Shown here one piece after another: positions 55 to 40,201 of a stretch of 64,000 bases of DNA. Both the position numbers and the translations under genes were made by a program. Each line of letters starts with the position of its first letter. Positions within the stretch are counted from its first letter, which is position 1. Under the pieces are notes generated by a model that searched no databases, had not been told where the DNA came from, and saw only the letters and a list, made by a program, of their open reading frames with translations. The stretch covers positions 330 through 64,329 of IMG/VR virus record IMGVR_UViG_3300044712_000496. One strand, 5' to 3'. The stretch comes from a virus. Taxonomy: Duplodnaviria > Caudoviricetes.

Positions 55-83
55 TTGACATTTATTCAAACCCCGGTTATAAT
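55..83 (+). promoter_or_regulatory. Consensus sigma70 promoter
   Basis: TTGACA(55-60)-17 bp-TATAAT(78-83). ATG at 90 sits at the expected +1. Confidence 0.85.
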
Positions 84-3132: not shown

Positions 3133-6100
3133 ATGAAATGGACATTCAATGCGGTTTTGTGGGGTGTGATCCTTCTCTGTTCCGGTATATCCTACGGGAT
3201 GGACTTCAATTTTGTGGGTAGCGGCAACGGGGGTGGATCCTCGTCGCTTCAGTCTTATACGGTGGCGACTCTGCCAACAGGTGTGGTTGGCAGAATGGTG
3301 TACGTCACTGACGGAGCGAGTTCGTCCGATTGTAGTGTGGGTCTTGGGACCACTCTAGTTCCTTGTATTTTTAACGGTGCTGCTTATGTCTCCATCGGCG
3401 TAGCGGGGGCATCCACTGTTTCGGATGCGGCATACGACGCTACCGGGTGGAACGGCGACACTACAAACTCGCCGAGCAAGAATGCCATCCGGGATAAGCT
3501 AGAGGCTCTGAATACTGCCTTGCTCGCATCCTCGCTTCAAAACTCCCTTTTCAATGCGCACACGGTCTTGGCTGCGACAACCGACGATACCCCGGCGGCT
3601 TTAACCGTTGGGGAGCAAACAGTAGTCGGCAGGGCGACAGGCGGGAATATTGCAGCCCTTTCTATTGATTCGGACCTCTCTTCAGTTTCGGCCAACGATG
3701 ATACTGTACCAAGCGCAAAAGCGGTAAAAGCCGTGACAGATACACTTGTCACAAAGGCTTTATATGACGCTAACACCATTCTCTACGCAACCACTGACAA
3801 CACCCCTGCCGCACTGACTGTTGCGGAGGACAAACTGGTGGGTCGGGCAACGGGTGGCAATATCGCGGGCATAGGGCTCGGAACGGGTCTTTCTATCACT
3901 GGCGGCAACCTGACTATTGGTACTCTCAATCAGAATACCTCCGGCAACGCGGCAACGGCAACGGCTCTTGCGGCGGACCCCGCAGGATGCACGAACCAAT
4001 TCACCAGGGATATCAACGCTTCCGGCACGGCCACCTGCGCCAGTGTAGCGGCGGCTGACATCACGACCAACACTATTACTGCAACTCAACTCGCAGCGGC
4101 ACTTACTTTCGCCGACGGTGATTTTCTCGACCTCTCCGCCATTACCATGAGCGGAACCAATGACGAGGGGATTGCGATACCTTATTGGGCGAACACCACT
4201 CCTACGAACGGGGCGACCAAACGCTTCCTCACCTGGGACGAGAGTTCTGGGGTCATCAAGATTTACACTGCATCGGGGTGGGTGACAATCAACCCGAGTT
4301 CCGGGGCGCCGACCGATGCGCCCTATCTTGTTGTAGGTTCCTTGAGTGCCTCTCTAAGCGGGGAGCGTCTCATGACCGAGGGACTGGCCATTGACTTCAC
4401 AGACGCGGGGGCGAACGGCAACTTCACCATAGCCTTCGATCCCACCGAGCTGACTGGTGACAGGACTTGGGCGGCTGGCGGAGCGGCCACTACCACCTGG
4501 ACATGGGACGTTTCCACTGGGGCAGATCCTACTCTCGCATTTGGTAACGGGTTGATCTCCACCAATTCCTCGTTCACGGTAGCGACAGGGAAGAACATCA
4601 CGGTAGGGACTACCCAGTGGAACAGCGGGGACTCAATAGATGGGACCAAGGTAGCGAACGCCGATCTCGGCGCGGTGTCTGTCTCCAGCGGTGTATGGTC
4701 TCTGGACAATGGGACCGTGGCTGCGGCTAAACTGGCTGATGCCGACTTCGGGCCTTTTACCGTGGCCTCCGGGGTAGTAACCATAGATGCCGACTCCATC
4801 AACGACACCCATATAGACTGGGGGACCGGGGCGAATCAGGTCAGCATGGATGACATCCCGAATGGCTCCAGTTTCGAGAAGGTTGCTGCTGCGGATGTGG
4901 ACAGCAACGGCCATGTGAATGTCTTCCAGGACTCGGACGGAACCGGGTCGATCTCTGTGACCGGGCTCACGGCGGCTAGGGCAAAAACCGTTAGGGACGC
5001 AGCGGATACTCTCCTCGAACTTGGTGGGTCTTATACCCCGACTGGCACTTGGAACTGGACAAGTGCAACTGTCACATGGCCGACAAGCCTCAATGCCCTG
5101 AATAGCACAACCTCGGCTGCGAACATGCTCCCCTACTACACCGGGAGCGGCACGGCTTCCACCACTTCTCTGACTGCTTTCGGACGTTCCTTGATTGACG
5201 ACGCGGACGCTTCAACTGCGAGAACCACCCTCGGGCTCGCCATAGGCACGGACGTACAGGCTTACAACGCCGCGCTCGCTTCCATCGCGGGGCTTACTGA
5301 GACAGCCGGGGGAACCCCGTACTTCACAGCATCGAATACATGGGCTGTCCTTGCTGCGGGATCCGCAGGGCAGATTTCGAGGTTCGGCGCTTCCACCGCC
5401 CCCACATGGTCAACCTTCACTATCCCCGATACCATCGCCCTCGGTTCCGTGTTCGCGGCAAACAGCCTCAACACCCTCACGGCGATCACTTCCACTAGTG
5501 GCACCAAGTTCCTCCAGAATGCGGACGGCGTGATCTCATGGCAGACCGGCGTTGGTACTATTGGGGGTTCTACAGGTTCAACAGACAACGCCCTGCTCAC
5601 AGCGAATGGCACAGGTGGAAGCACCCTACAAGCGAACAGTTCTACATCTACCCTCTCCGATGCAGGGCTTTTGACTGTCCCGACCCTTTCTTCCGGGGCT
5701 GGTGGCTTTACGGTTGACGCCGATGGGGATGTGGTTGCGAAATCCATAACTATCAGCAAGGTAAGCGGCTTAGCCGGCATCCTTAGTCTCTATGAGGCGA
5801 ACTCCACCGATATGGACTATTCCGGCAGGATCGGCCCGAGTTCTATAACCGCCAACACCTCCTACCTCTTGCGGGATCCGAATGCAAGGGCGACTTCCGG
5901 TAACATGGTGCTTGCCTATACCAACAGCGGGGAGTCCGGTTCCGGCACTCCTGCGGATCCTTACATTCAGGTGGGGTCGTGGGCAGATCTCGATGACTAT
6001 GTGGCAAAAGCCGGGGCTACTATGACCGGCAAACTCACAGCCGTCAATTCTGGAACTTCTTCTGGCTTGAACGTAGGTTATTGGGCATCTCCTCCAGCTT

Positions 6101-11139: not shown

Positions 11140-12024
11140 ATGGCGGACCAGCAGGTTGTATCACAAGTCATAGCGCAGGTTGAGAGCCAGAGCGCACCGA
11201 TTGACTATCAAACGGTCAGCCAGGTAGTTCTTCAGGTCGAGACCAACCCCAATGAGATTTCGTATTCCGTTACTTCAGCGGGTGGGTGTGTCACGGGTGG
11301 ATCCTCCAGTGTGTTGCGGGGCAAGGTTTTTCCCTCGACCAACGGCTCCATAGTAGGAGGAGCATCGGTTGTTTCCTACCAGCATACTTATTCCGTGGTT
11401 TCTTCCGATGGACTGGTCGTGGGCGGAGCCTCAGCCATAAGCATGGGGGCGGGCTACAACATGGTGTCGTCCGGCGGTCTGGTCACGGCGGGGGTGACTT
11501 CCCTGGTGCGTGGTCAGGTGGTTCCGTCTTTCGGGGGCGCAGTGACGGGCGGTTCCAGTCCCCAGGTTCAAGGCCGCGTGGAAGTTTCTTCGTCCGGGGG
11601 GGTAGTTGGCGGCGGGGCTGCAATAACTGGGTTCCACAATTATTCGGTTTCTTCGCTCGGGGGTCTTGTCGCTGGCGGGGCATCAGAGTTCGATTTTGGT
11701 CTCAGCTACCCTATTCGGTCGAGCGGCGGGGCGGTGTTCGGCGGTAGTTCTGCCGTCGGCTATGACGGCTCGATAGTTTCCGCAGGGGGTTCCGTAGCGG
11801 GGGGTTCGTCGGGGATCCTGCTTCTCCCGATCCGCGTGATTCGCAAATTGCGAATGCACCCCCAGTTGAATGTTCCTAAAATTCAGGGCCGGGTCAAACA
11901 GGCCAGCGTTCACGGTGAGGTACAGGCGGCGAGCGCGGCTATCAGGTTCGGCGCATTGCGCCAGGTCGGGGTTATCGGCGGACTGTCGATAGAGTTCCAT
12001 CTCCGGTCGCGGAGGGAGATATGA
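11140..12024 (+). CDS. Gly/Ser/Val-repeat fibre-like protein
   Basis: About nine SxGGxVxGG-type repeats. Confidence 0.65.
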   Translation: MADQQVVSQVIAQVESQSAPIDYQTVSQVVLQVETNPNEISYSVTSAGGCVTGGSSSVLRGKVFPSTNGSIVGGASVVSYQHTYSVVSSDGLVVGGASAISMGAGYNMVSSGGLVTAGVTSLVRGQVVPSFGGAVTGGSSPQVQGRVEVSSSGGVVGGGAAITGFHNYSVSSLGGLVAGGASEFDFGLSYPIRSSGGAVFGGSSAVGYDGSIVSAGGSVAGGSSGILLLPIRVIRKLRMHPQLNVPKIQGRVKQASVHGEVQAASAAIRFGALRQVGVIGGLSIEFHLRSRREI

Positions 12025-28492: not shown

Positions 28493-29803
28493 ATGGCGGA
28501 TTTCAGTTTTACTACAGGATCATTTAAGAAAGACCCGAGAGACTTCAGCTTTACCACCGGGGGTTTTGCTGGTCAAGCTGCGCCGAAGGTGGCTCCTATT
28601 GCTTCGCATGGAGATGGGATTGCTCCTCCGGTTGCCCCTCCGGTCTCTCCTACACCCGCTCCCGAAAAACCGGCTCGGGTGAGGAACTTCCATCAGGTCG
28701 CCAAGACCGCCAATGCGGGAGCGGACTTTTCCAGGGCTGTGCAGAACATCGCAGATAATGTCTACCCCGGTCCCCCTACGGAGAACGGTTTCAGTCTGAC
28801 AAAGGGCGACACCGGGGCGACTTACGGTTACGATCCTGAGTCCAACTCCTTCAGCAAGCCCCTCGGGTTCTATACCGCCGCCGGCCAGAAGCTCGAAGGG
28901 CCGGAGAATATCACTGGCACGGTGGGAAGGTCCATGCTGACCGGAGCCCCCATTTCAGGAACAAATTTTGTCAGCGGGGCCACGGTCGCCCCGACCCCCA
29001 ATGGCATCGCCCATACTCCCGGAGCAACGGAGAAAGAGGTTCCCCTTTCCATGATCTCAAACCCTAAGACCAATCCTCTCACAAACCCCTGGTCCGGGAG
29101 CCCCGAACAGAAAGCCACTGCTGAGACCTTGGATGACATGATGCGTTCCTACAAGACCGCCGTTGACCCGTTCAATCCTTTCCTCCGGGGCAGGACGAGG
29201 GCTGCGCTCGCTGAAGCGGCGACCAGCGGGGTTAACAGGTCTTTGGAGAGCATGGTCGGTGGGGCTGCGCATGGGATGAACTTCATGTCAACCGTGAGGG
29301 GCCAGGATACTGCGGCGGATATTGCTTCTGATAAGAATGCCGTGGATGTTCAGAACATAAATGCCAATCTCCAGATAGCGAAGCAGAATAATGCGCTCCA
29401 GAGCAAGATCCTTGAGAACACTATAAAGCATCAGGGGGTTCAGGAAGGTTTCGAGGCCCAGAGGCTCGGGCTGGACGCCAGCAGACTCAATTTCGATAAG
29501 TCCAACTCCAAGACCGCGCTTGAGGCTCTGAAGCAGGAGAATAAAAGCACTCCGGTTTTTAAGGACTTCCTTACTGCGTCGGGTGGGGATGTGGGCAAGG
29601 CGACCGAGGGGATGCAGGACTACAGTATGGCGACAAAAGGGTGGAGCCCGGTGAAGGAACAGAAGGTAGGAAATTTTCTGAATAGGAGCAAGGTGCCGAG
29701 GCACTACGCCCCGCAAGGCGGGGTTCCCACAGGAACTTATGGGGCCGACGGAATGCCGCTCTACAAACTCTCTAATGGTCAAGTTGTATCCGGGGTAAGA
29801 TAA
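28493..29803 (+). CDS. Internal virion/ejection protein
   Basis: Low-complexity Pro/Gly/Gln-rich protein directly before the giant protein. Confidence 0.55.
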   Translation: MADFSFTTGSFKKDPRDFSFTTGGFAGQAAPKVAPIASHGDGIAPPVAPPVSPTPAPEKPARVRNFHQVAKTANAGADFSRAVQNIADNVYPGPPTENGFSLTKGDTGATYGYDPESNSFSKPLGFYTAAGQKLEGPENITGTVGRSMLTGAPISGTNFVSGATVAPTPNGIAHTPGATEKEVPLSMISNPKTNPLTNPWSGSPEQKATAETLDDMMRSYKTAVDPFNPFLRGRTRAALAEAATSGVNRSLESMVGGAAHGMNFMSTVRGQDTAADIASDKNAVDVQNINANLQIAKQNNALQSKILENTIKHQGVQEGFEAQRLGLDASRLNFDKSNSKTALEALKQENKSTPVFKDFLTASGGDVGKATEGMQDYSMATKGWSPVKEQKVGNFLNRSKVPRHYAPQGGVPTGTYGADGMPLYKLSNGQVVSGVR

Positions 29804-32800
29804 TGGCCGATTTTGAATATCCGGTATATAAAGGTCCGCAGTTCGATTCTCCGAATGGCGACACAGGCTCTTTCGTCCAGGAGACCTTGAAGGCAGTACC
29901 GAGAACCTTCGGGGCGATGGTTGAAGAGTCCGGGCGCATAGCTCATGCTCTCACAGCGGGGAAATTCCACGGAGCATCGCAACTGATACAGACAGGCAAA
30001 GAGGCGCAGGAAAAACACGCGATGTCCCCGGAGTTCGTCCAGGCGCATCCGATAGCCGCAACCGTTGGGGGGGCGGTCGAGGGTCTTGCGACTATGGCAC
30101 CATACCTGGCGGGCGAGGCGTTTGTGTCGGCTATTGCGCCGGAGGCCGGTCTCCCTGCCGCCGCGGGTACTCTCGCCCGAGGTTTCTCTGCCGTCGCTCG
30201 GGGATTGAAAAAGACCCAGGCGATAACCAGGGTCGGACTCCCGGCGGGCATCGGCCTTGCCACGGCAGACAAGACCTATGAGATGGCGAGGGAACAGGGT
30301 AAGGATGTTCATGATTCAGTGGCCGCTTCGATCCTCCCCGGCGTAGTCTCCGCCGCAGGAATGGCGTTGATGGGACCGGGGGCCAAGGCAGGTCGCAGCC
30401 TGTTGTTCAAGGAGTCGGCACAAACCCTGGCGCAGCCGGCGAAGAAGGAGTTCGTCAAGGACATCATAGGCGGGATGGTTGTGGATACCCCCATCATGCA
30501 GGGCGCAGCGGCGGCAACCGCTCTTGCGCAATCAGCCGCAGGGGTAAAACCCGAACAGACGGCGACCGAGATCCTCACCAATCCGCAGCAGTGGTTGTCG
30601 GCGACCATAACAGGCGGCATCTTCGGTGTCCTGAACGCAGCGCATCGCAAGGGGGCGGCGGATGTCCTGAACGAAGCCCTGTCGAACCCGGAGATGAATA
30701 AAGAGTCCCGTGCGAAGGCTGTGGAAATGATTTACCAGCGTGGAAAAGGTGGGAACGAAACCACGGCGGAACTCTGGAGAGCGCAAGCCTTAGATCTTAT
30801 AAACAAAAAGCAACCCATCCCGGTTGACGCCGTTGAGATGTTCAAAGCCCCCGAGGAGCCTGTCGAAACCGGAACCCCGGAAAAGGCGAGGACGGAAGTG
30901 CTTAAAGCCGTGCAGGAGAGCGTTGCGACCGGCGGAGAGAAGACCCCCCTTGAGATCATGGCCGAGAACAAGGAGACCGAGGGCGCAGCGGTGAGCCTTG
31001 AGGCTTTAAAACCTGACTCCTACATGATGTTGAACCCGCAGACTGGGGAGGTAGAACGCATCCCCAACACGGCGGAGAGCCTCAAGATGGCGAAGGAGAT
31101 GGGATACGTCAGCGCATCGGACGAGATGGTTGCAGGGATACAGGAATACGAAGCACTCCGGGGGGTGGATTATGAAAGAGAAGAAGTTCAACTTTCACGA
31201 ACTGGCGAAGGCGTACAAGGAGAAGGGGCATATCGGGACAACGAAAAAGAACCTGTCGCCGGAACAGGCGATAGTGCTATCCAAAGCCAAGGAAAAGTAG
31301 AGCCTCTCAAGGACAACGAGGCGAGGTATGTCTCAGGGGCGGAGGGGCGTGAAGCGATAAGGCGGGTGGGTGATACCGTCGAGTGGTGGGGCCAGGATGC
31401 CAACGGTGACGCTTCTATTATTGCGGTTGCCGACATCCTCCCGAACGGCAGACTGACCATCCGGGAAGCCGAGACCCCGGAGGCCGCATTGAGGGCTGTT
31501 GATCTTCTCGCCAGAGAGACCGGACTTAAACCCGATGAAACCCGCTTTGCCCGAATGAAACCCATCACCGACAGGATGATGGAAGAAGAGAAGATACTCC
31601 GACCGGCTGTGAGGTTCGCCCCTGAAGGCGGGAAAGAGATGGTCACGACCGCCGAACCGGGTACGGGGACGCATTACGAAGCCTTGGCAAAGATACCCCG
31701 CGACTTCGAGAACCGCCACGGCAAGCTGCAAGGCTCCATGAAAGAGGGGTATGTCCTCCCCGATGGCACTTTCCTGTCTCGCCGTGAGATCATCCCCTGG
31801 CTTCGCATCAACGACCCGGAGACCTACAGGGCGATCCCCGGCAGCATGAGAACGGCCCCCGAGGGTCTTGAGTCTGTGAGCTACAACCGGGCGAAGGGTC
31901 TGGTGGGGAATGACTTTGAATTTATTGACGGGTTGCGTTTCTCCAGAAGCGAGGGTGCTATGAACTCAGACGTTACAAAGCTCTATGACCTCCTGCGGAG
32001 ATTCAACCCCGAAGTGGACTGGAAAGAAAAAGGGATAAAAGCAGGACTGGAAGAACTTCGCAAAACGAAGGACGAAAAGTTCAGCCGGGAGATTCAGAAA
32101 ACCGAGACGCTCTTTACCACAATCGAAACAGGAATCACCGAGGTCTCCAAGGGCTTAAAAATCCCGGTCGAGGTTGTGCGCAGCAGATCGGAGATCCCCG
32201 GTCTCAAGCAACCGGGTTTCGACTTCTCGGGTGTCTACCACGAAGGTAAGATATGGATGGTCGCCGATCAGTTGAAAGACCTTGACCATGCGAAGGAGAT
32301 TCTGTTAAAACATGAACTTATCCATGCCGGTTTCCGTGAGTCTCTCGGGAAGGACTTCGACACCCTGCTCGGTCGGGCGTGGAGTTCGAGGGGGACGGAA
32401 GTAAGGGAGTTCGCTGACAAGGTAGGGATTGACTGGAAGACCAAGGCGGGTAAGGCTGAAGCTACTGAAGAGTGGCTGGTCGAGTTCGCAAAGACCGATG
32501 CCAAATCCCCCGTGTGGGATAAGTTCGTCTCCGTCCTCAAGGACTGGGTGAGGAAGGTCTTTGGGATTGACCTGAAACTCTCCGATGCTGAAATTCGTAA
32601 CCTTGTGGCCGAGGCTGGCAAGGCGATGAAGGGAGATAAGAAATCCCTGACTCCCCTGAAGGAATTTCAAGGGACATACCCCTTCGCCAAATTCGACGAG
32701 ATGTTCGCCGATCTCGCTCCGACGAGATTCAACTCGGAAGGTAAACCCGTGATCTGGTACTCGAAACTGGAAAAACATCTTGACGACAAGACCCGGAGCC

Positions 32801-35800
32801 TGAAGGGGGACAAGCCGGTTCCCGTTTCTCACTTCGAGCAACTCCTCAAAGACACCAGCCTGAAGAAAGACGAGCTGGAACAGTCAGGGGTGAGGGAGTG
32901 GCTCGCAGGTAAAGAGAAGGCGACGAAGAACGAAGTCATGGATTACCTGAAGGAAAATCAGGTGGAACTGAAGGATGTGGTGTTGGGGGGAGCCAATACG
33001 GGGTGGAATGAAATCGAGCAAGACTTGCACGATACAGGAGAAGCACGTTTATCCAATGGGTATACCGTTGTCTATGAGAGCGGTGCGTATGAAATCTATG
33101 ATGATGGCAATGGTTTCCAAGGCACTGCCGGATACTCCGTAGCTGATGCCGTGGCCTATTTGAAAAAAGCATATCCAGGATATGCTTCAACCACCCCCAC
33201 CCACTTCTCCCAATACACCGAACCTGGCGCGAAAGAGGGAAGCTACCGGGAGATGTTTGTGACGGTGCCGGTGTCCCCCCGCGATCAAGCGGCAATGGAG
33301 CATAATGCCAAAATATCTGCCGACCACAACGCACCGACAAAAATACTTCAAGATTCTTGGAAAGACGGTCACTCCCAATATTCAGATATTCAAAATCCTG
33401 TGGTGAGGATTAGGTTTAATGAGAGATTTGTAGCTGACTCTGAAGGAACATCAGTAGAGGTAGGAGGCAAGGGTGGTAAGGTTCAAAGACTTACTCATGA
33501 GCGCCAGAAGATGTTGGACGCCGGGATGTCTGACATGGGGGTGCGGGGAAATAGGATTCTCTTCGTAGAAGAGATGCAGGGACCGTCGGACGAGAATCAA
33601 GGGAAGATGCCCGAGTATCTCAAGAACAGGATTTATGACATCGGGGTTAAGCGCATCCTGCGGTACGCGAAGGAGAACGGTTTTGACGGCGTGGCGTGGA
33701 CGCCCGGAGAGGTTCAGGCGAAAAGGTATGATTTGAGTAAACATTTTGACAAGATTGAAGCCCTAGCAAACCCGGACGGGACATTTAACATCTTCGGTTA
33801 CAATAATGCAGGGGAGAGAATAGTCGATAAACTCGATGTTCCACAGGGACAATTACCAGATGTAGTTGGTAAAGAACTGGCTGAGAAAATAGTAAAACAG
33901 CCGTGGGTTCGGGGGGAGTACAAGGGTTTAGATTTAAAAGTCGGCGGCGAAGGTCTCAAAAGGCTCTATGACCAGATGCTCCCCAAGATGTTCGAGAAGT
34001 ATGGGGGGGAGAAGGTAGGAGAGACTAGGATTGAGAGTCCAAATGCGGGGCGCCCACCCGCCAATGTGGTAGAGGACTATACTAGGGAACATTATGGGGT
34101 GGCTTTCAACAATCTCCGTCCAGAACAACGGGCGGAACTCTATCAGGAAGTTGTGGATGCTGAAAAACTAAAAGCCCTATCCACCCCCTTCATCCCAATC
34201 ACCGAGAAAACCCCCGGTTCTTATCCTCTCTTTGCGCGTGTAGCGCAAGAGACACCCCCGGCTGAAAGGCGGGAAGCGACGAACGAATGGACGAAGGGCA
34301 TCTTCACGGCGGGGCGGGTTATCAAGGACGCGGCTTCTTCTGTTTACTCCGCTGTTATGCCCATCGACAGAACGATAACCCTTGCGACTTCGAGGAATGA
34401 CTTTGCTCCGGTGCGGCCCAACTTTAACGAGATCCTTCGACTGCGCAGGGAAAAGGCGCAGTACGTTCCCACGGAACTCTACAAGGCGCATGAGAATATC
34501 AAGATGTTCTCCAAAGCGGGGATGGATGGGGTGTCAGATGTGGCCTACAAAGCCACGCTCTATGAACTTGATCCCTTCGCGCCGATGGAGAGGCAGTGGG
34601 TTGATGCCGAGAACTGGTCGCCGGTAAGTGGAGTAGAATTGGCTCCTGCACGGTCGCTCGAAGAGGCGAAGGCTGATCTCATGAAGTCTTTCAACCGTCT
34701 GACCCCGGAGCAGAAGCAGACCTACAAAGACATGACTGACCACATCTCCGAGGCGAGGCAGCAGAGGTTCCGCGCTCTTCTGCGCAATGTGGACCTTGCC
34801 TTTGGGCCGGGAACAGAAAAAGCTATGGAAGAAAAAGCGAAGCTCATGAATGACTTCGCACAGATGACGAGGGGGAGATACGTCCCCCTGTCCCGGTTCG
34901 GCCAGTTCCTCGTCAGGACATTCGCTATTGAAGGGGACGAAAAAGGTCGGCGTTTACATACAAAAGCCTACGAATCGAAACAGGGGGCTCTCGACGCGGT
35001 GGCAGAAGCGAGGAACCAGAATCTCCACGCGGAGATTACCGAGAAGATGGACCCGAAGGATTATGTCGTCAATGTCCCCTCTTCTTTCCTTGCTTCGCTC
35101 ACCCAGGCGGCGGAGGCCCGAGGGATCTCAGGCGAACAACTGGAGCAACTGACCGGCGACATCACAAGGCTCTGGGTCAGCACAATGGCGCCCGACACTA
35201 TCAAGGGTAACTCCCTGCATCGCCAAGCTGTCGAGGGATTCTCTACCGACCTTGCGAGAACTTATGCGGCTCATATCCAGAGAGAGGCGATGTCAACATC
35301 GAACGCCCTATACAACCCACTCATAGCGCAGCAGTTCCGCAACATGAAGACCGTGGTATCCGCTCTGAAGGAGGATGTGGAAAACCCCTATGATCCTAAC
35401 GCCCTGATCGACATTGCAAGGCTGGCGGACAAGATAGAGGCCCAGGACATACGTTTTCAGCGGGAGAGGATCAGTGAAGCGACGAAGGCGATAAGCAAGA
35501 TCACATACCTCCATTACCTGACCTCCCCCTCGGTGTGGGCGGTTCAGTGGTCACAGCCGTTCATGATGACGATTCCCAAGATGGCAGGGAAGTATGGGTT
35601 CGCCGAGGCGATGGGCTATTACACCAGGGCGGCTTCCCAGTATATGCGGGGGGCGTTCTCCGACCAGAAAATAGCTGAGTTCGAAGCAAGGACGAACGGC
35701 GCAGGGCGCAGGATGCTCCAGGCTCTCGACCAGGCGAGGAACGGAAGCAAGGTAGGGTTGGGCAAAGCCCAAGCAATCTACGATGGCATGAAGACCGAGG

Positions 35801-37134
35801 CTGACAGGAACCTGCTTATACAGGCAACGCTCTTGAACCAGGGGGGCATTACGCTCTCCCTATCCCACGATGTCATGGACCAGATAACCAGCGGACGGAA
35901 TATCGAAAAGATGCTGGATACGGCGACGGAGTATGGCAGTTTCTTCATGCGCAAGTCCGAGATGGGAAGCCGCAAGGCTGCGGCGGTGGCTGCGTTCAGG
36001 GTTGCTCTTGAGAAGGGCGGGAAGAACATGCTGGAGGCGAACGACTATGCCCTCCATGTTATTGACGACACGCTTTATGACTTCTCCTCGGAAAACCGCC
36101 CCGCTCTTCTGAAGGGTAACGTAGGCCGGGTCATCGGGCAATTCCAGTTCTTCAGGCTGCATACGGTAGGAAAAGTCATGCAACTGGTTATGGACAGCGC
36201 AAAGCGGGGGTACGAGTCGAACGTGGCGGCGTTCGGGGAATCCAAGGCCAAGGAGATGTTGAGAGAATCCCGAAAAGAACTCGCCTTCATGACCGGGATG
36301 GGGTTCGCCCTCGCCGGCGCAGCCGGGACTCCTATTTCGATGCTCGCCTCGAACCTTGTGACCGACGCTCTGTGGGCCGGGATCAAGTTCCTCTTCGACG
36401 ACCCGGACGATCCGTGGAACCCGAAGCAGGATTTTGAAGCGACAGTCAGAGAGTCTCTGGGAGATACGGCGGGGACCGCAGTATTAAAAGGTCTGCCGGC
36501 GATGATGGGACTGGATATATCCCGGCGTGTAGGGATGGGTGGCATGGCGAACATGATCCAGAACGACCCGCCTCCGGGGATGTCCGAGATGGACAAGGCG
36601 AACTGGCTGGCAGGGAGGATCCTCGGCCCGAGTTGGGGTGTCGCTACCGATGTAGTCCGGGCCTTTGATGCCGTGGGTCGTGGGGAATTGGCCGACGCTT
36701 TCATGTACTCCAACCCCAAGATCGTCAAGGACTTCATCAAGACCTACAACCTCAACGCCGAGGGCGTTGTCGCCAAGGGCAAGACGATACTGCAACCCGA
36801 GGATGTCAGCCCGTGGAGCTTCGCTCTCCAGTTTGCGGGTATAAATCCCACGCAGGTCGCACTCGCCCGCGAGGAAGCCGCGGAGATCAACAAGCTGTCT
36901 TATGCGCTCTCGGCTCGGAGGACCAAGCTCCTGAAGGACTTCACCGAGGCCCGGTTGAATGACGACTATGAGGCTGAAGAAAAGGCGATTGAGAAAATCA
37001 ACGCATGGGCGGAGAAACAGCCGAAGCTCATGATCTCCCAGAAAGAACTCGTCCATGCCGTCCGACGGGCGATGAAGCTGAAGGAAGGCGCACCCACGAA
37101 GCGGGAGGAGATTATAAAAGAACAACTGAGTTGA
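29803..37134 (+). CDS. Large polyvalent internal virion protein (2443 aa), PLxRFG family, with a zincin-like domain
   Basis: YVPLSRFGQF; LKHELIHAG...ATEE (HExxH); LFVEEMQ and DGVAWTPG domain. Confidence 0.75.
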   Translation: MADFEYPVYKGPQFDSPNGDTGSFVQETLKAVPRTFGAMVEESGRIAHALTAGKFHGASQLIQTGKEAQEKHAMSPEFVQAHPIAATVGGAVEGLATMAPYLAGEAFVSAIAPEAGLPAAAGTLARGFSAVARGLKKTQAITRVGLPAGIGLATADKTYEMAREQGKDVHDSVAASILPGVVSAAGMALMGPGAKAGRSLLFKESAQTLAQPAKKEFVKDIIGGMVVDTPIMQGAAAATALAQSAAGVKPEQTATEILTNPQQWLSATITGGIFGVLNAAHRKGAADVLNEALSNPEMNKESRAKAVEMIYQRGKGGNETTAELWRAQALDLINKKQPIPVDAVEMFKAPEEPVETGTPEKARTEVLKAVQESVATGGEKTPLEIMAENKETEGAAVSLEALKPDSYMMLNPQTGEVERIPNTAESLKMAKEMGYVSASDEMVAGIQEYEALRGVDYEREEVQLSRTGEGVQGEGAYRDNEKEPVAGTGDSAIQSQGKVEPLKDNEARYVSGAEGREAIRRVGDTVEWWGQDANGDASIIAVADILPNGRLTIREAETPEAALRAVDLLARETGLKPDETRFARMKPITDRMMEEEKILRPAVRFAPEGGKEMVTTAEPGTGTHYEALAKIPRDFENRHGKLQGSMKEGYVLPDGTFLSRREIIPWLRINDPETYRAIPGSMRTAPEGLESVSYNRAKGLVGNDFEFIDGLRFSRSEGAMNSDVTKLYDLLRRFNPEVDWKEKGIKAGLEELRKTKDEKFSREIQKTETLFTTIETGITEVSKGLKIPVEVVRSRSEIPGLKQPGFDFSGVYHEGKIWMVADQLKDLDHAKEILLKHELIHAGFRESLGKDFDTLLGRAWSSRGTEVREFADKVGIDWKTKAGKAEATEEWLVEFAKTDAKSPVWDKFVSVLKDWVRKVFGIDLKLSDAEIRNLVAEAGKAMKGDKKSLTPLKEFQGTYPFAKFDEMFADLAPTRFNSEGKPVIWYSKLEKHLDDKTRSLKGDKPVPVSHFEQLLKDTSLKKDELEQSGVREWLAGKEKATKNEVMDYLKENQVELKDVVLGGANTGWNEIEQDLHDTGEARLSNGYTVVYESGAYEIYDDGNGFQGTAGYSVADAVAYLKKAYPGYASTTPTHFSQYTEPGAKEGSYREMFVTVPVSPRDQAAMEHNAKISADHNAPTKILQDSWKDGHSQYSDIQNPVVRIRFNERFVADSEGTSVEVGGKGGKVQRLTHERQKMLDAGMSDMGVRGNRILFVEEMQGPSDENQGKMPEYLKNRIYDIGVKRILRYAKENGFDGVAWTPGEVQAKRYDLSKHFDKIEALANPDGTFNIFGYNNAGERIVDKLDVPQGQLPDVVGKELAEKIVKQPWVRGEYKGLDLKVGGEGLKRLYDQMLPKMFEKYGGEKVGETRIESPNAGRPPANVVEDYTREHYGVAFNNLRPEQRAELYQEVVDAEKLKALSTPFIPITEKTPGSYPLFARVAQETPPAERREATNEWTKGIFTAGRVIKDAASSVYSAVMPIDRTITLATSRNDFAPVRPNFNEILRLRREKAQYVPTELYKAHENIKMFSKAGMDGVSDVAYKATLYELDPFAPMERQWVDAENWSPVSGVELAPARSLEEAKADLMKSFNRLTPEQKQTYKDMTDHISEARQQRFRALLRNVDLAFGPGTEKAMEEKAKLMNDFAQMTRGRYVPLSRFGQFLVRTFAIEGDEKGRRLHTKAYESKQGALDAVAEARNQNLHAEITEKMDPKDYVVNVPSSFLASLTQAAEARGISGEQLEQLTGDITRLWVSTMAPDTIKGNSLHRQAVEGFSTDLARTYAAHIQREAMSTSNALYNPLIAQQFRNMKTVVSALKEDVENPYDPNALIDIARLADKIEAQDIRFQRERISEATKAISKITYLHYLTSPSVWAVQWSQPFMMTIPKMAGKYGFAEAMGYYTRAASQYMRGAFSDQKIAEFEARTNGAGRRMLQALDQARNGSKVGLGKAQAIYDGMKTEADRNLLIQATLLNQGGITLSLSHDVMDQITSGRNIEKMLDTATEYGSFFMRKSEMGSRKAAAVAAFRVALEKGGKNMLEANDYALHVIDDTLYDFSSENRPALLKGNVGRVIGQFQFFRLHTVGKVMQLVMDSAKRGYESNVAAFGESKAKEMLRESRKELAFMTGMGFALAGAAGTPISMLASNLVTDALWAGIKFLFDDPDDPWNPKQDFEATVRESLGDTAGTAVLKGLPAMMGLDISRRVGMGGMANMIQNDPPPGMSEMDKANWLAGRILGPSWGVATDVVRAFDAVGRGELADAFMYSNPKIVKDFIKTYNLNAEGVVAKGKTILQPEDVSPWSFALQFAGINPTQVALAREEAAEINKLSYALSARRTKLLKDFTEARLNDDYEAEEKAIEKINAWAEKQPKLMISQKELVHAVRRAMKLKEGAPTKREEIIKEQLS
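31172..31300 (+). CDS. Putative nested out-of-frame ORF (42 aa)
   Basis: GGGGGTGG RBS; MKEKKFNFHELAKAYKEKGHIGTTKKNLSPEQAIVLSKAKEK in the +1 frame. Confidence 0.45.
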   Translation: MKEKKFNFHELAKAYKEKGHIGTTKKNLSPEQAIVLSKAKEK

Positions 37135-37165: not shown

Positions 37166-38167
37166 ATGAGCGTCAGAGAGCATCCGACAAAGGGGCGGGG
37201 TTGGTGGACTATTGATGTCGGGCGGGGCAGGAACCGGAAACGCCCCGCCTTTGAAGGAACCTACGAAGAGGCCCAGGATTGGGAAATGGAGATCCGGGCG
37301 CAGACATCCACCATCCAGGACAAGATAAACCCCAAGTTCAACCAGTGCATTCCCGAGTTCCTCATAAGTTACGGCAACAACCGCCCCGCCTCCCTATCCC
37401 GGACCCGCATATCCCTGGACCATCTGAAGAAGCACTTCGGCAATCTCTCCCTCCTGTCCATCACTTCGAGCCAGGTAGAGCAGTATAAAGCCTCCAGGAT
37501 CCTCAAAGGGGTCAAGCCCACCACAATACAGAAAGAACTTTGCGCCCTGTCGTCCTTCCTCAAATGGGCCAAGAGGGAACGGAAAATAGCCCACCTCCCC
37601 GAGTTCGACAAGTTCCCCGGCAAGATGGTCAAAGCCCCGCTCCCCGTGGTCCCCACGCAGGAGTTGATAGAACAGGTGATAGCGGAAGTCCGCCCTGAGT
37701 GGAAACAGATTGTGTTCAAACTCATGCTGTTCTGCGGGCTCCGCCGAGCCGAGGTCTTGAAACTCAGGGGCGAGGATGTTCTCCTGGATCGAGGGCTTTT
37801 GATCGTAACCGGAAAAGGGAGCAAACAGAGGGTTGTGCCGGTGATAAGGGACGACATTAAAGAGGGGCTTCGACGGGTCGTGGAGAAGGCGGGAGCGGGG
37901 TATCTGTGGGTGAACCCGGTGACGGACAAGCCCTATATCGACATCATGGACTCCCTGAAGGAAGCAGCCAGGAGACTCGGGTTCTCGGGGCGCTGGTATA
38001 ACCATATCCTGCGGCATGGGTTCGGGACTTACTCCCACGAAGCGGGGCTCTCCCTGCGGGACATTCAGGTTCTCATGGGCCACTCCACCAGCCAGGTCAC
38101 GGAGATCTACACCCACACATCGAGCGGTCATCTGGCAGAGGCTTTGGGAAGGTGGCAGAAGAAATAA
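37166..38167 (+). CDS. int: Tyrosine integrase
   Basis: GLRRAE (R), GKGSKQR (K), HILRH, LMGHS and EIYTH catalytic residues. Confidence 0.95.
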   Translation: MSVREHPTKGRGWWTIDVGRGRNRKRPAFEGTYEEAQDWEMEIRAQTSTIQDKINPKFNQCIPEFLISYGNNRPASLSRTRISLDHLKKHFGNLSLLSITSSQVEQYKASRILKGVKPTTIQKELCALSSFLKWAKRERKIAHLPEFDKFPGKMVKAPLPVVPTQELIEQVIAEVRPEWKQIVFKLMLFCGLRRAEVLKLRGEDVLLDRGLLIVTGKGSKQRVVPVIRDDIKEGLRRVVEKAGAGYLWVNPVTDKPYIDIMDSLKEAARRLGFSGRWYNHILRHGFGTYSHEAGLSLRDIQVLMGHSTSQVTEIYTHTSSGHLAEALGRWQKK

Positions 38168-38174
38168 CCCCCCG

Positions 38175-38780
38175 TTATGTAGTAGCCCCCTCAATTTTGT
38201 TAATCTGGGAACAAAAATCTGCGATAGATAGAGCCGACAACGCCCCGAGCGCAATCTGTTTGTGCTCGTCTGAAAGTTCTTCCAATGCGGCCAAATACTC
38301 CTGATATATTCTCTTGAGCCGCGCCTTAAGAAACTTAGGCTGATGCAAGTAAATGTAGTTCAAAAGTGCTTGGGATGGAGCGAACCACTCGCCCATCAGC
38401 CTGTCTTTTGCGAAATGCAAATGTAGTTCTTGCTCTAAACTATGGCTCGCGCCTTCGAGAACCAGAAGTAAATTCAATTTGTATGGGTTTGCAACCTGGA
38501 GTTTCGCTATTCTCCCCACTAGATCATTATGCACAAACCCGATCTTAATAGGCCCATCAGAACCCTGTTGTATGAAATAAACAAATGGAGGGTTCTTCTT
38601 GTCATGCGCAAGTGCAACTACCGTGGGGTCTTCGATATAGTAACCCGCTTTTGCGTGTCTCGCTCGTCTGGCAGCTTCGAGCTTTGTTCCATAGAACGCA
38701 ATTCGCTTTCGGTCTTTGCTCCGACCAATGTCAATGACCCACCAGCCGTCTCCTTTTGTTGGATGTGGACGAAACGACAT
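38175..38780 (-). CDS. GIY-YIG (T5orf172/MUG113-like) nuclease with integrase-like N-terminal domain
   Basis: FVYFIQ...IKIG...RIAKLQVANP...EQELHLHF...GEWF; the first 36 aa are 24/36 identical to Int. Confidence 0.8.
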   Translation of the reverse strand: MSFRPHPTKGDGWWVIDIGRSKDRKRIAFYGTKLEAARRARHAKAGYYIEDPTVVALAHDKKNPPFVYFIQQGSDGPIKIGFVHNDLVGRIAKLQVANPYKLNLLLVLEGASHSLEQELHLHFAKDRLMGEWFAPSQALLNYIYLHQPKFLKARLKRIYQEYLAALEELSDEHKQIALGALSALSIADFCSQINKIEGATT

Positions 38781-38785
38781 AGCCT

Positions 38786-38941
38786 CTACTCCTTGGACTG
38801 TTTTTTCTGCTCCCGAGCGTCCACCATTTTCTTAGCCTGCTCGGATGTAAGAACGCGCTTCGATTTCTTTCCACCTTTACTAGCCAAATGGTGTGCAATT
38901 ACTTCGTCTGGGATATCCCTGTCACAGTATGGGCATTTCAT
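38786..38941 (-). CDS. Small basic CxxC/KGG protein (51 aa), probably leaderless
   Basis: MKCPYCDRDIPDEVIAHHLASKGGKKSKRVLTSEQAKKMVDAREQKKQSKE. Confidence 0.6.
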   Translation of the reverse strand: MKCPYCDRDIPDEVIAHHLASKGGKKSKRVLTSEQAKKMVDAREQKKQSKE

Positions 38942-38947
38942 ACTTAT

Positions 38948-38976
38948 CTTATATCATAACCGCTTACGTTTGTCAA
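38948..38976 (-). promoter_or_regulatory. Promoter for the small protein/nuclease operon
   Basis: TTGACA-17 bp-TATAAG, ATG 6 nt later; near-palindrome TAAGCGGTTA in the spacer. Confidence 0.7.
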
Positions 38977-39004
38977 GTGCTGTTTTTTAAATTTTCCTTC
39001 TAGG

Positions 39005-39160
39005 CGTGCCATTTTTGCCTCTCGTAAGTATCTGATTTTATAGGACTAAAAAATTACGGTGACTGAACTCAAAATCCACTACGCGCACCCGTAGGTTCTT
39101 GATATAAGCGGATTCACAGACAGGGAAAAATTAGAAATTGACACTAATTGACACACTTTT
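39005..39160. other. Putative attP
   Basis: Non-coding and near int. ACTCAAAATC (39067-39076) is identical to the tRNA-Leu anticodon loop region; AATTGACAC direct repeats at 39136 and 39146; TAAGTATCTGATTTT motif. Confidence 0.6.
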
Positions 39161-39243
39161 GGGGGGTTTAAAAAGGGAGCCTTTTTACTACTTTGGGGGG
39201 ATGGCGGTTCGGCCCTTCCAGGCCTCATGACTCAGCAACCAAA

Positions 39244-39330
39244 GGGGGGGTGGCGGAACTGGTAAACGCGGCAGACTCAAAATCTGTTGCCCGTCCGGGC
39301 TTGGGGGTTCGATTCCCCCTCCCCCTACCA
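39244..39330 (+). tRNA. tRNA-Leu (anticodon CAA)
   Basis: D arm TGGCGGAACTGGTAAACGC, anticodon arm GCAGA-CTCAAAA-TCTGT, long variable arm, GGTTCGATTCC, encoded ACCA end. Confidence 0.93.
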
Positions 39331-39331
39331 T

Positions 39332-40201
39332 TTAAAGACGCTCTCCTCGTTCCGCGCAATAGTCATCCCACAAGACAGACTTATATAGCTTTTTCAGGTT
39401 GGCCCATCGTGCCAAACGACGCAGTTCTCTAGGGGGGACAGTACCTATTTCGTCTATATAGGGCTGAACGAAGGGATCAACATTCATGCCTTTTAAGAAC
39501 CGCAGGACCTCTAATGTAGATTCCAAGTCTCTCGCAAGTACATAGCAGGAATATGTCCGTGGGGTTACGTTATACATTCGTAAAATCTGAATAGCTTTTT
39601 CAACCGCTGGTATCATACTACAGGAATCACATGCCAGACGAACAGGTTCCGCCCATTTGCATTTAGAGAGCAATTTTGCTGTCGCGGGGTCTATCAATCG
39701 AGCGTCTAGTCCTTGGTTGAAATCAATCTTTATTTGTGTGGATCCCAATAGCTCTATCTGGCGAACTCCATGCTCACAAGCCAGCACGTTGTTGTCCATG
39801 AAAATGACTTTCCCATGCCGCGTAAATTCGGTATATTCAGCATGGGGTTCTATGGGGCCTTCTTTGGCAGGAACAAAGCAATGTTCGCATCTACGAATAC
39901 AACCCCGAGTTAGAAATCCGAGGGAGTAATCAAGCCCGTAAAGATCATAGTCGGGACAGATGTGCTCCACCCACTCTGGGAGCGTGGACCCAATCTTTCT
40001 CCCCCATCCCCCTCTGATAGATCCTTCTGGGGCATTCTCTGGGGTAAAGCTGAACACTTTTGAAGACACTACCTTATCGTAGGAGACACCATTTTTATAT
40101 AGCTCCGTTGAGGCTCCCCGGCTTTTATACGCCGCAGACAGTTTCATGAGTGCTAAATTGGGGAAGTTTGTATTGTCGGCATCGTGCAATCCTACGAGCA
40201 T
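39332..40201 (-). CDS. Radical SAM protein
   Basis: TRGCIRRCEHC (CxxxCxxC), FPNLALMKLS, MDNN and DFNQGLDARL. Confidence 0.85.
   Translation of the reverse strand: MLVGLHDADNTNFPNLALMKLSAAYKSRGASTELYKNGVSYDKVVSSKVFSFTPENAPEGSIRGGWGRKIGSTLPEWVEHICPDYDLYGLDYSLGFLTRGCIRRCEHCFVPAKEGPIEPHAEYTEFTRHGKVIFMDNNVLACEHGVRQIELLGSTQIKIDFNQGLDARLIDPATAKLLSKCKWAEPVRLACDSCSMIPAVEKAIQILRMYNVTPRTYSCYVLARDLESTLEVLRFLKGMNVDPFVQPYIDEIGTVPPRELRRLARWANLKKLYKSVLWDDYCAERGERL

Follow-up and report, generated by a model that had tools for sequence, protein, structure and literature searches.

Odn (gp88) of the Vibrio phage ICP1 joins an N-terminal domain that is 42% identical to a satellite RepA_N to a T5orf172 nuclease, and it cuts the satellite origin only if the iterons are present, according to the accessible part of its description (Barth et al. 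2021, PMC8263062). Nuclease activity of T5orf172 has been shown biochemically for Odn, and an E180A mutant is predicted to be inactive (accessible parts of PMC8263062 and doi 10.1101/2023.03.23.533998). The subject of this report is a chimera of similar design, encoded by an open reading frame (ORF) of 201 codons that is convergent with a tyrosine integrase gene (int, product Int) in a 64,000-nucleotide stretch of DNA from a virus of the Caudoviricetes (IMG/VR record IMGVR_UViG_3300044712_000496, positions 330 to 64,329). That whole stretch is called the window below. The likeness to Odn is one of design, the two proteins being compared by description and not by sequence. As far as the accessible part of the Odn literature goes, both place an N-terminal DNA-binding domain homologous to another element's site-specific protein ahead of a C-terminal T5orf172 domain, both are related to free-standing homing-endonuclease genes, and both would mimic a rival's own DNA-binding specificity. 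Unlike Odn, the 201-aa ORF has an integrase N-terminal (arm-type-like) domain rather than RepA_N as its donor domain, its presumed target is the repeats of attachment-site (att) arms rather than replication iterons, its carrier is a temperate phage that itself encodes an integrase of the donor type, and the ORF is known from sequence alone.

T5orf172 homing-endonuclease genes are modular, with exchangeable DNA-binding parts, and AP2-HNH ('IPA-HNH') homing endonucleases also exist; the heads reported include CapR, DUF723, DUF4397 zinc fingers and RepA_N with T5orf172, and AP2 with HNH (accessible part of Barth, Dunham and Seed 2023, doi 10.1101/2023.03.23.533998). The locus described here shares with these genes a modular nuclease with a swappable head, sporadic presence and intergenic insertion by conserved genes, and it may share with the AP2-HNH enzymes an AP2-type beta-sheet DNA-binding fold. 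It differs in that the accessible part of that source makes no mention of an integrase-family N-domain joined to T5orf172/MUG113, and in that the genes it treats are mostly in lytic phages. CapR, a DNA-binding relative, acts as a repressor, and two near-identical temperate Sulfitobacter phages differ by a block that holds a T5orf172 gene, as stated in the accessible parts of this literature.

In I-TevI, the GIY-YIG catalytic domain comes first, followed by a flexible linker and then a separate DNA-binding module. The 201-aa ORF resembles I-TevI and the Seg-type homing endonucleases of T4 in having a GIY-YIG-type domain tethered by a flexible linker, a free-standing intergenic gene and possible autorepression. 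Unlike I-TevI, it has the head first, belongs to the T5orf172/MUG113 subfamily with KIG in place of YIG, and carries another DNA-binding fold. In heterobivalent tyrosine integrases (lambda Int residues 1-64, HPI/P4-like Int), an N-domain of the AP2-integrase fold binds arm-type sites; this domain was reportedly treated by Magnani in 2004 and Balaji in 2005. The window family resembles these arm domains in its place at the extreme N-terminus, its length of ~45 residues, its predicted beta-beta-beta-alpha order, and tandem repeats spaced at 10-12 nt beside a presumed core. It is unlike them in that no Pfam arm-domain model matches and fold matches reach a Z of only 3.4-4.3, and its arm binding is a prediction. 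The initial annotation of the window regarded the architecture as undescribed. That stands for the fusion itself, since no joining of an integrase head to T5orf172 or MUG113 was found in the literature searched, a point on which the supplementary domain tables of Barth et al. 2023 may bear; it does not stand for the principle, which was already in print in Odn, a T5orf172 nuclease with a borrowed DNA-binding domain. A nuclease with a borrowed site-specific head is a principle established by Odn and the modular homing endonucleases, and the version with an integrase head appears to be new.

An integrase-type head joined to a T5orf172/MUG113 domain

The first 36 residues of Int and of the 201-aa ORF are identical at 24 positions by manual count, a recount that agrees with the initial annotation, and BLASTP aligns the two N-termini with an expectation value (E) of 1e-14. 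A six-frame search of the complete 64,329-bp virus record found the domain in Int and the 201-aa ORF only, with no third copy. At the DNA level, the 36 shared codons are identical at 62 of 108 nucleotides, and 16 of the 24 identical residues are encoded by different codons. The proportion of synonymous differences (pS 0.91) is saturated and that of nonsynonymous differences (pN 0.28) lies well below it, which bears out the earlier proposal of selection at the protein level and is at odds with a dN/dS near 1. Recent duplication of the 5' end of the neighbouring int was considered and ruled out, synonymous sites being saturated and the GC content at third codon positions (GC3) being 0.75 in int versus 0.47 in the ORF. 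The residues identical in the 36-residue comparison (manual count) include R4, K9, R20, R24, K25 and R26; across a 44-row head alignment only M1, K9, G31 and A36 are invariant.

A profile built from the N-termini of Int and of related nucleases matches the ORF head at 2.6e-20, and the head profile matches nuclease N-termini and integrase N-termini alike. By these comparisons, the ORF head is a homologue of the integrase-family N-domain, with three predicted strands and a helix. AlphaFold (AF2) models place the strands at residues 3-5, 13-18 and 25-30 and the helix at 33-44, at a predicted local distance difference test score (pLDDT) of ~84-92 (84 for the head alone). Fold matches of the head alone are weak: the AP2 domain of Plasmodium SIP2 (Z 4.3), lambda Int residues 14-58 (Z 3.9), the arm-binding domain of HPI Int (Z 3.7) and the DNA-binding domain of lambda Int on P'2 DNA (Z 3.4). 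The PDB entries 2wcc, 1z1b and 3jtz, of integrases with arm-type N-domains, are among those matched. Pfam gives no match for the ORF head; the arm-domain model PF13356 matches only one of 15 related nucleases, weakly (0.041), and no arm-domain model of Pfam matches the window ORF. The fold evidence for an arm-binding-type domain is consistent but not decisive, and the stronger argument is homology of the head to the extreme N-terminus of integrases that have a SAM-like domain and a complete catalytic domain.

Int itself has a SAM-like core-binding region at residues ~69-143 and a catalytic domain at 168-319, behind the small N-terminal domain. It matches PF00589 (78.4 bits, 7.4e-22) and PF02899 (3.2e-5) in Pfam and the integrase family PHROG 1 (2e-52), and R193, K217, H280, R283, H306 and Y315 are invariant among 35 family members. 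A C-terminal tail of ~20 residues, present in the integrases of two related phages (L003 and L072), is absent from it. About 40 integrases that are 33-63% identical to the window Int start with MS[VI]RPHPTKGxGWW..ID..G..KR..F.GT..EA, and by alignment this motif is a signature of the whole family of ~40 members and not of the window Int.

The remainder of the ORF matches two Pfam models above their cut-offs: MUG113 (PF13455) at residues 79-134 with 35.4 bits against 22.3, and T5orf172 (PF10544) at residues 66-134 with 23.2 bits against 20. Related fusion proteins match MUG113 in 15 of 15 cases and T5orf172 in 12 of 15 (E up to 1). Among 25 sequences at 30-50% identity, Y68, K79, I80, G81, R90, E116, H120, G130, E131, W132 and F133 are invariant in this domain. 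The features of the GIY-YIG motif are present, namely a Tyr in strand 1, K-I-G (K79-I80-G81) in strand 2, an Arg in helix 1 and an acidic metal ligand, catalytic roles being assigned by motif order and not by residue-level superposition. The AF2 model of the whole ORF, built on the same number of sequences (25), has a mean pLDDT of 88 and consists of a beta-beta-beta-alpha head (1-44), a disordered linker (47-56), an alpha/beta nuclease domain (66-146) and a three-helix tail (148-199, with helices at 148-166, 171-180 and 186-199). The best fold matches (VIA-align) of residues ~51-153 are 1ywl (Z 5.3), HIGLE (4.9), Slx1 (4.9), I-TevI (1ln0, 4.4) and UvrC (4.2); 1ywl is a structural-genomics protein whose family is not stated in the search output and which was taken to be GIY-YIG. 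The tail can be aligned in P0001-P0007 and P0049 and is conserved in the close family, its helical fold matches being non-specific only.

Other searches were less informative. With the whole 201-aa model, Foldseek found nothing at E up to 0.001; among PDB sequences, a profile search turned up only a spurious malate oxidoreductase match (E 1.6) and nothing relevant, and the PHROGs matched are families of unknown function only. The protein is probably a member of the T5orf172/MUG113 branch of the GIY-YIG superfamily, with predicted nuclease activity. Both the GIY-YIG assignment of the initial annotation and its joining of that domain to an integrase-type N-domain were thereby recovered, by the Pfam matches, BLASTP against Int and the AF2 model. 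We have high confidence in this architecture and in the status of the gene as part of a cassette.

The cassette and the att-like segment

The nuclease gene, a 51-codon ORF upstream of it (orf51) and their own promoter make up a low-GC cassette of ~0.8 kb between int and a conserved segment with repeats and tRNA-Leu(CAA). The stop codon of orf51 lies 5 nt before the ATG of the nuclease gene, with AAGGAG 8 nt upstream of the same ATG, and the two genes are probably co-transcribed. The orf51 product has a weak match to zf-Di19 in Pfam (0.0035, below cut-off), and tblastn in L001-L008 found nothing similar besides the window's own copy in L001. The promoter (TTGACA-17 nt-TATAAG) ends 6 nt before the orf51 ATG, and its -35 box is also a TGTCAA motif, of the kind that recurs around the putative attP. 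This near-consensus pattern has two matches in 64 kb versus 0.01 expected from shuffles; a separate promoter scan, in which T was required as the last base of the second hexamer, did not list the cassette promoter. An operon of the nuclease gene with a small basic ORF and a promoter next to the putative attP, as first annotated, is what these features describe. The sole other perfect match of the TTGACA-N17-TATAAT type lies at window 55-83, near the left end of the record.

Composition sets the cassette apart from int, with a GC3 of 0.54 in orf51 beside the values given above. In all five other loci measured, the homologue has a GC content of 0.35-0.43 versus 0.46-0.62 for its neighbours or the locus average (0.52 for the integrase of the phage contig L009). 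The site is empty in relatives: in L003, L072 and L073, int is followed by tRNA-Leu(CAA) (ARAGORN) within ~100-170 nt, without the cassette. These cassette-free relatives are distant (Int 44-47% identical to that of the window; 46% for L003), so that exact insertion junctions are undefined. Of 80 loci fetched by the integrase-family profile, 21 further phage loci carry the head on the integrase, and in no case is there a MUG113 domain within 3.5 kb. The best reading of these sequences is that the cassette is inserted and foreign, and that the nuclease gene is free-standing and horizontally mobile. Sporadic presence and absence at the same locus, a trait of homing-endonuclease genes, is seen both at the int-att junction and at a chromosomal truA-hemG site described below. 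Consistent pairing with an integrase family, a trait of excisionases, is not seen, as evidenced by the 0 of 21 loci and by L003.

The segment beyond the cassette has a common layout in the window, L003, L072 and L073, with an anticodon-stem-loop-like element (GGACTCAAAATCC or a close variant) followed by two or three tandem repeats, spaced at 10-12 nt, just 5' of tRNA-Leu. In the window, the element (GAACTCAAAATCC) copies the anticodon region of tRNA-Leu(CAA) at 39275-39284 as a 10-mer repeat. The repeats are AATTGACAC twice in the window, G/TTGACAT three times in L003 and L072, and TTCAATAC twice in L073. Towards int there are inverted TGTCAA motifs, and three of the four int-tRNA-Leu phages have both tandem TTGACAY repeats and these inverted motifs. 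TTGACAC occurs four times in the window, two of these in the AATTGACAC pair. In L003 and L072, 4-6 nt separate the last repeat from the tRNA, so that the repeats of these two phages are not the -35 box of the tRNA. Tandem arm sites stand beside the core in lambda (P'1-P'3), and the segment resembles, by analogy with these, an attachment core flanked by arm-type sites; the attP remains putative. The initial annotation had placed the nuclease gene between int and a putative attP, and the repeat-bearing segment does behave like an attP in four related phages.

The anticodon copy also adjoins int: int is closely followed by ACTCAAAATC in L003 and L072 and by a variant of it, GGGCTTAAAATCCC, in L073. 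In all four phages, a second copy of the anticodon loop (ACTCAAAATC; CTTAAAATCC in L073) lies ~100-170 nt upstream of a complete tRNA-Leu(CAA), beside int. The phage may integrate at the anticodon loop of a host tRNA-Leu and carry a replacement tRNA, with one or the other copy as the core.

Together with the architecture, this layout suggests a mechanism. A nuclease gene would have captured a copy of the N-domain that defines this phage's tyrosine-integrase family. That N-domain would bind the TTGACAY/TGTCAA repeats flanking the att core, at the same sites as the integrase N-domain or near-cognate ones, and the tethered nuclease domain would cut nearby DNA. The DNA cut would be that of cassette-free relatives, phages or prophages, with the same integrase family. 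Either the cassette would thereby be copied into the int-att junction (homing), or a competitor would be kept out, which is what Odn achieves with its borrowed RepA_N domain. The protein may also repress itself at the cassette promoter, since the -35 box there is one of the repeats. We give an even chance to this reading, in which the gene is mobile and its product a chimeric nuclease, like a homing endonuclease or like Odn, that is directed to arm-type repeats, with binding and cleavage predicted.

Features of the locus are collected in Table 1. In the wider window, long plus-strand ORFs span ~3.1 kb to 37.1 kb and, from 39.3 to 57.6 kb, the majority of long ORFs are on the minus strand; between the two blocks, int is followed by the 201-aa ORF, orf51, a 300-nt AT-rich spacer and tRNA-Leu(CAA). 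The virus record has direct terminal repeats and was judged to be a complete phage, of which the window is nearly all. The last plus-strand ORF, directly upstream of int (29803-37134), has 2,443 codons, which is very large for a 64-kb phage. On the other side, an ORF of the radical-SAM family (39332-40201; PHROG 9298 at 4e-67, no Pfam match) ends 1 nt past the 3' end of tRNA-Leu on the opposite strand, with a GC3 of 0.46, low like that of the cassette. A tRNA-Arg(TCG) of 93 nt, unusually long for a tRNA-Arg, was found by ARAGORN at 11496-11588, inside a 294-aa ORF (11140-12024, plus strand).

Table 1. Features of the integrase-nuclease locus (window coordinates unless another locus is named)
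Feature	Position	Strand	Evidence
Tyrosine integrase (Int), 333 aa	37166..38167	+	Pfam, PHROG, invariant catalytic residues
N-terminal domain of Int, residues 1-45	37166..37300		
201-aa ORF (nuclease gene), convergent with int	38175..38780	-	ORF list
N-terminal domain of 201-aa ORF, residues 1-45	38646..38780	-	BLASTP against Int, profile, AF2
T5orf172/MUG113 (GIY-YIG superfamily) domain of 201-aa ORF, residues 66-146	38343..38585	-	Pfam, invariant residues, fold matches
C-terminal helical tail of 201-aa ORF, residues 148-201	38178..38339	-	AF2 helices, alignment of close family
orf51, 51-aa basic CxxC...HH ORF, directly upstream of nuclease gene	38786..38941	-	ORF list
Near-consensus sigma-70-type promoter (predicted) for orf51 and nuclease gene	38948..38976	-	Motif count versus shuffles
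Anticodon-stem-loop-like element GAACTCAAAATCC, candidate attP core	39065..39078	+	10-mer repeat of tRNA-Leu(CAA) anticodon region; kept in relatives
Tandem AATTGACAC x2, candidate arm-type sites	39136..39154	+	Repeat search, 10-nt spacing
tRNA-Leu(CAA)	39243..39330	+	ARAGORN; adjoins int in related phages too
Segments from anticodon copy to tRNA	window 39065-39330; L003 7067-7251; L072 4567-4752; L073 about 4594-4783		

Homologues and the descent of their heads

The fusion is not unique to this genome, and neither this check of the earlier interpretation nor that of pN against pS goes against it. It has six close homologues, beyond which the 50%-identity clusters number at least 12. Of 542 candidates from a word-indexed search, 48 passed an E of 0.001, and six of these (P0002-P0007) are 43-49% identical to the ORF at 83-98% query cover, head included. 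At the same threshold, an exhaustive search of 1.84 billion representatives returned 15,082 proteins, most of which, with few exceptions, match by the nuclease domain only; for 13 of the best 150, the query among them, the alignment begins at residue 14 or earlier and shows integrase-type heads. Among 50,697 records of cultured phages, tblastn gave seven matches, none at 80% protein cover or more, and no fusion.

The only two phage-borne fusions found in IMG/VR are those of the window and of L009, a viral contig of 58.8 kb. The L009 homologue, of 204 aa, is 42% identical to the 201-aa ORF over residues 1-143 and is convergent with an integrase of the same family, 15 nt away, the head being present on both. 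Upstream of the nuclease gene, TGTGTAGAAA occurs four times, two copies in tandem at 10-nt spacing, one direct and one inverted. In both phages, then, the nuclease gene is convergent with int and has a cluster of short repeats on its other side. A tRNA-like fragment suspected upstream of the L009 gene was unsupported, Rfam giving no match at E up to 1 and ARAGORN none.

Related MUG113 genes were inspected in 44 viral loci. An integrase lies within 6 kb in 13 of them and is adjacent or overlapping in seven (L009, L011, L016, L017, L020, L047 and L048), counts that are uncontrolled and in which the integrase profile may miss divergent integrases. In L011 (5422-7690), an excisionase-type HTH_17 domain (3.7e-13) forms part of the MUG113 protein, whose gene is directly upstream of int, the usual place of xis genes. 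L048 (4398-6444) has a MUG113 ORF on each side of int, and the proteins of L016 and L047 have an N-terminal helix-turn-helix by eye only, with no Pfam match at E up to 0.05.

Such positions raise the alternative of an accessory or regulator of recombination that does not cut. Its head, on arm-type sites, would bias integration versus excision or would repress int, the tRNA or its own promoter, and the T5orf172 domain would serve for oligomerisation or be weakly active. This would suit the place of both phage-borne genes between int and att-like repeats, the TGTCAA motif in the -35 box, the HTH_17-MUG113 protein in the xis position and the (uncontrolled) frequency of int near MUG113 genes. I-TevI is moreover reported to be a repressor as well as a nuclease, and CapR to be a domesticated relative of homing-endonuclease DNA-binding domains, in the accessible parts of the literature. 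Set against this are the absence of the gene from 21 of 21 other Int-family phage loci and from L003, L072 and L073 with the same int-tRNA layout, and the occurrence of chromosomal homologues without int. The retention of all GIY-YIG-type positions at 30-50% identity argues for an enzyme, and a low-GC gene of such scattered occurrence looks less like a core recombination factor than like a selfish or defence gene. As the gene is absent from those 21 loci and has chromosomal copies without int, an obligatory recombination-factor role is, on this distribution, unlikely, and the earlier suggestion that the gene controls the direction of recombination as a required partner of int is not upheld. 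A regulator without cutting activity appears improbable to us.

The nuclease reading also draws on chromosomal copies. Among 239 genomes of the bacterial order that holds L005, three have a full-length copy. In G002, the nuclease gene and higBA lie between truA and hemG, which are 142 bp apart in G023; higBA alone is widespread. In L005, the homologue stands between mqsRA-like and relBE-like pairs (ORF reading), and in L004 and L006 it is found with higBA, L004 being a metagenome locus with the same context as L006. Homologues in Geobacter-type genomes lie in variable islets without an integrase, and in L007 and L008 the contig ends at the gene. The truA-hemG gap is itself variable, being empty in G023 and holding ~3.9 kb of other DNA in G028. 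Many genomes of this order have the higBA of L006 (1459-2105) in different places, at ~75-83% DNA identity, which gives it the look of a mobile toxin-antitoxin module. In L008 (2409-3113), an integrase-like N-terminal fragment (profile E 9e-7; integron-integrase-like by eye) lies ~0.7 kb upstream of the homologue.

Comparison of the heads does not tie each nuclease to the integrase beside it. Over 44 aligned positions, the ORF head is 24/44 identical to its own Int, which stands at rank 5 of 42; three unrelated members of the integrase family reach 26/44, and another nuclease head 28/44. For the L009 nuclease head, its own Int ranks 33 of 42, although the Int and nuclease heads of L009 both have, by eye, a beta1-beta2 loop that is four residues longer. 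In a maximum-likelihood tree of 54 heads, nine nuclease heads group together (93/85, not starred), including those of the window, L009 and the Geobacter-type copies. This group is nested among 'short-loop' integrases, in a starred clade with 96/87 support, without being sister to the window Int. Four other nuclease heads fall among 'long-loop' integrases, and P0052 joins P0225-P0227 on a starred branch (99/88). The starred branches force at least three changes, while an approximately unbiased (AU) test does not reject a single nuclease clade (p 0.36). Repeated capture of integrase heads by nucleases is possible but unproven.

Co-variation of the head with the cognate Int, a check put forward with the initial annotation, is rejected for the window by the identity ranking and the 54-head tree, and the L009 ranking is no more favourable, with two int-adjacent pairs (window and L009) forming the whole sample. 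Since the motif is family-wide and the ORF head groups with nuclease copies, the view that the 24/36 match is special to the neighbouring Int is not supported.

These results bring in a second alternative, that the head is a generic DNA-binding one with a target unrelated to att, as in a defence nuclease against phages or plasmids or a homing endonuclease with another site. On this view, the gene would be next to int because accessory genes ('morons') usually accumulate at the ends of prophages, the int/att junction being a frequent site for such genes. The bacterial homologues, amid toxin-antitoxin modules in variable islets without int, agree with such a role, as do the lack of co-variation and the similarly low GC of the neighbouring radical-SAM gene. 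It accounts less well for the same detailed layout of repeats, nuclease and convergent int in two phages whose proteins are only ~42% identical. Nor is the head generic: by profile, among the loci examined, it is found only in this integrase family and these nucleases, and it is 50-65% identical to integrase heads. A target unrelated to att we regard as unlikely.

Target sites and the integrase family

Several observations weigh against a nuclease directed to arm-type repeats. The nuclease N-domains do not track the neighbouring Int, either by ranking or in the tree. The head's Z values of 3.4-4.3 are tied with those of unrelated beta-beta-beta-alpha units (PH/PTB and DegV subdomains), and Foldseek with the head alone gives nothing at E up to 0.001. 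Some of the 'arm sites' may be no more than promoters, as TTGACA doubles as the -35 consensus, and the repeat motifs differ between the window (AATTGACAC) and L009 (TGTGTAGAAA). The attP is unproven: in 239 genomes of the homologue-bearing order, the best host tRNA-Leu is 78-82% identical, and with none above 82% the attB and the host are not identified and the attP stays putative. The available flanks of L005 and L006 (at least two of four genome-collection loci) and of L004 hold no integrase or tRNA, so that an att-linked target is not general. Finally, among the genomes found there is no near-identical pair of phages with and without the cassette to show homing.

A broader claim can be made only tentatively, and we think it rather doubtful, namely that T5orf172/MUG113 nucleases with captured integrase heads (or HTH_17 heads, as in L011) form an 'integrase-mimic' class that cuts the attachment-site arms of rivals and is deployed by temperate phages and bacterial accessory islets. 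If such a class exists, att DNA would be a target of inter-element warfare or homing, which would push integrase heads and arm sites to diversify.

The locus offers a concrete, testable case of a nuclease predicted to be aimed at attachment-site DNA, and it draws attention to MUG113/T5orf172 genes that recur beside integrase genes in viral contigs, an association that has gone undescribed and for which the counts are uncontrolled. If the head does direct the nuclease to arm-type sites, this would be the first case of its kind to have sites of site-specific recombination as the target. An experimental handle would also be gained on an uncharacterised integrase family, on what its N-domain binds and on where attP lies. 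It would further suggest that attachment sites and integrase N-domains evolve under attack, and not only under the needs of recombination.

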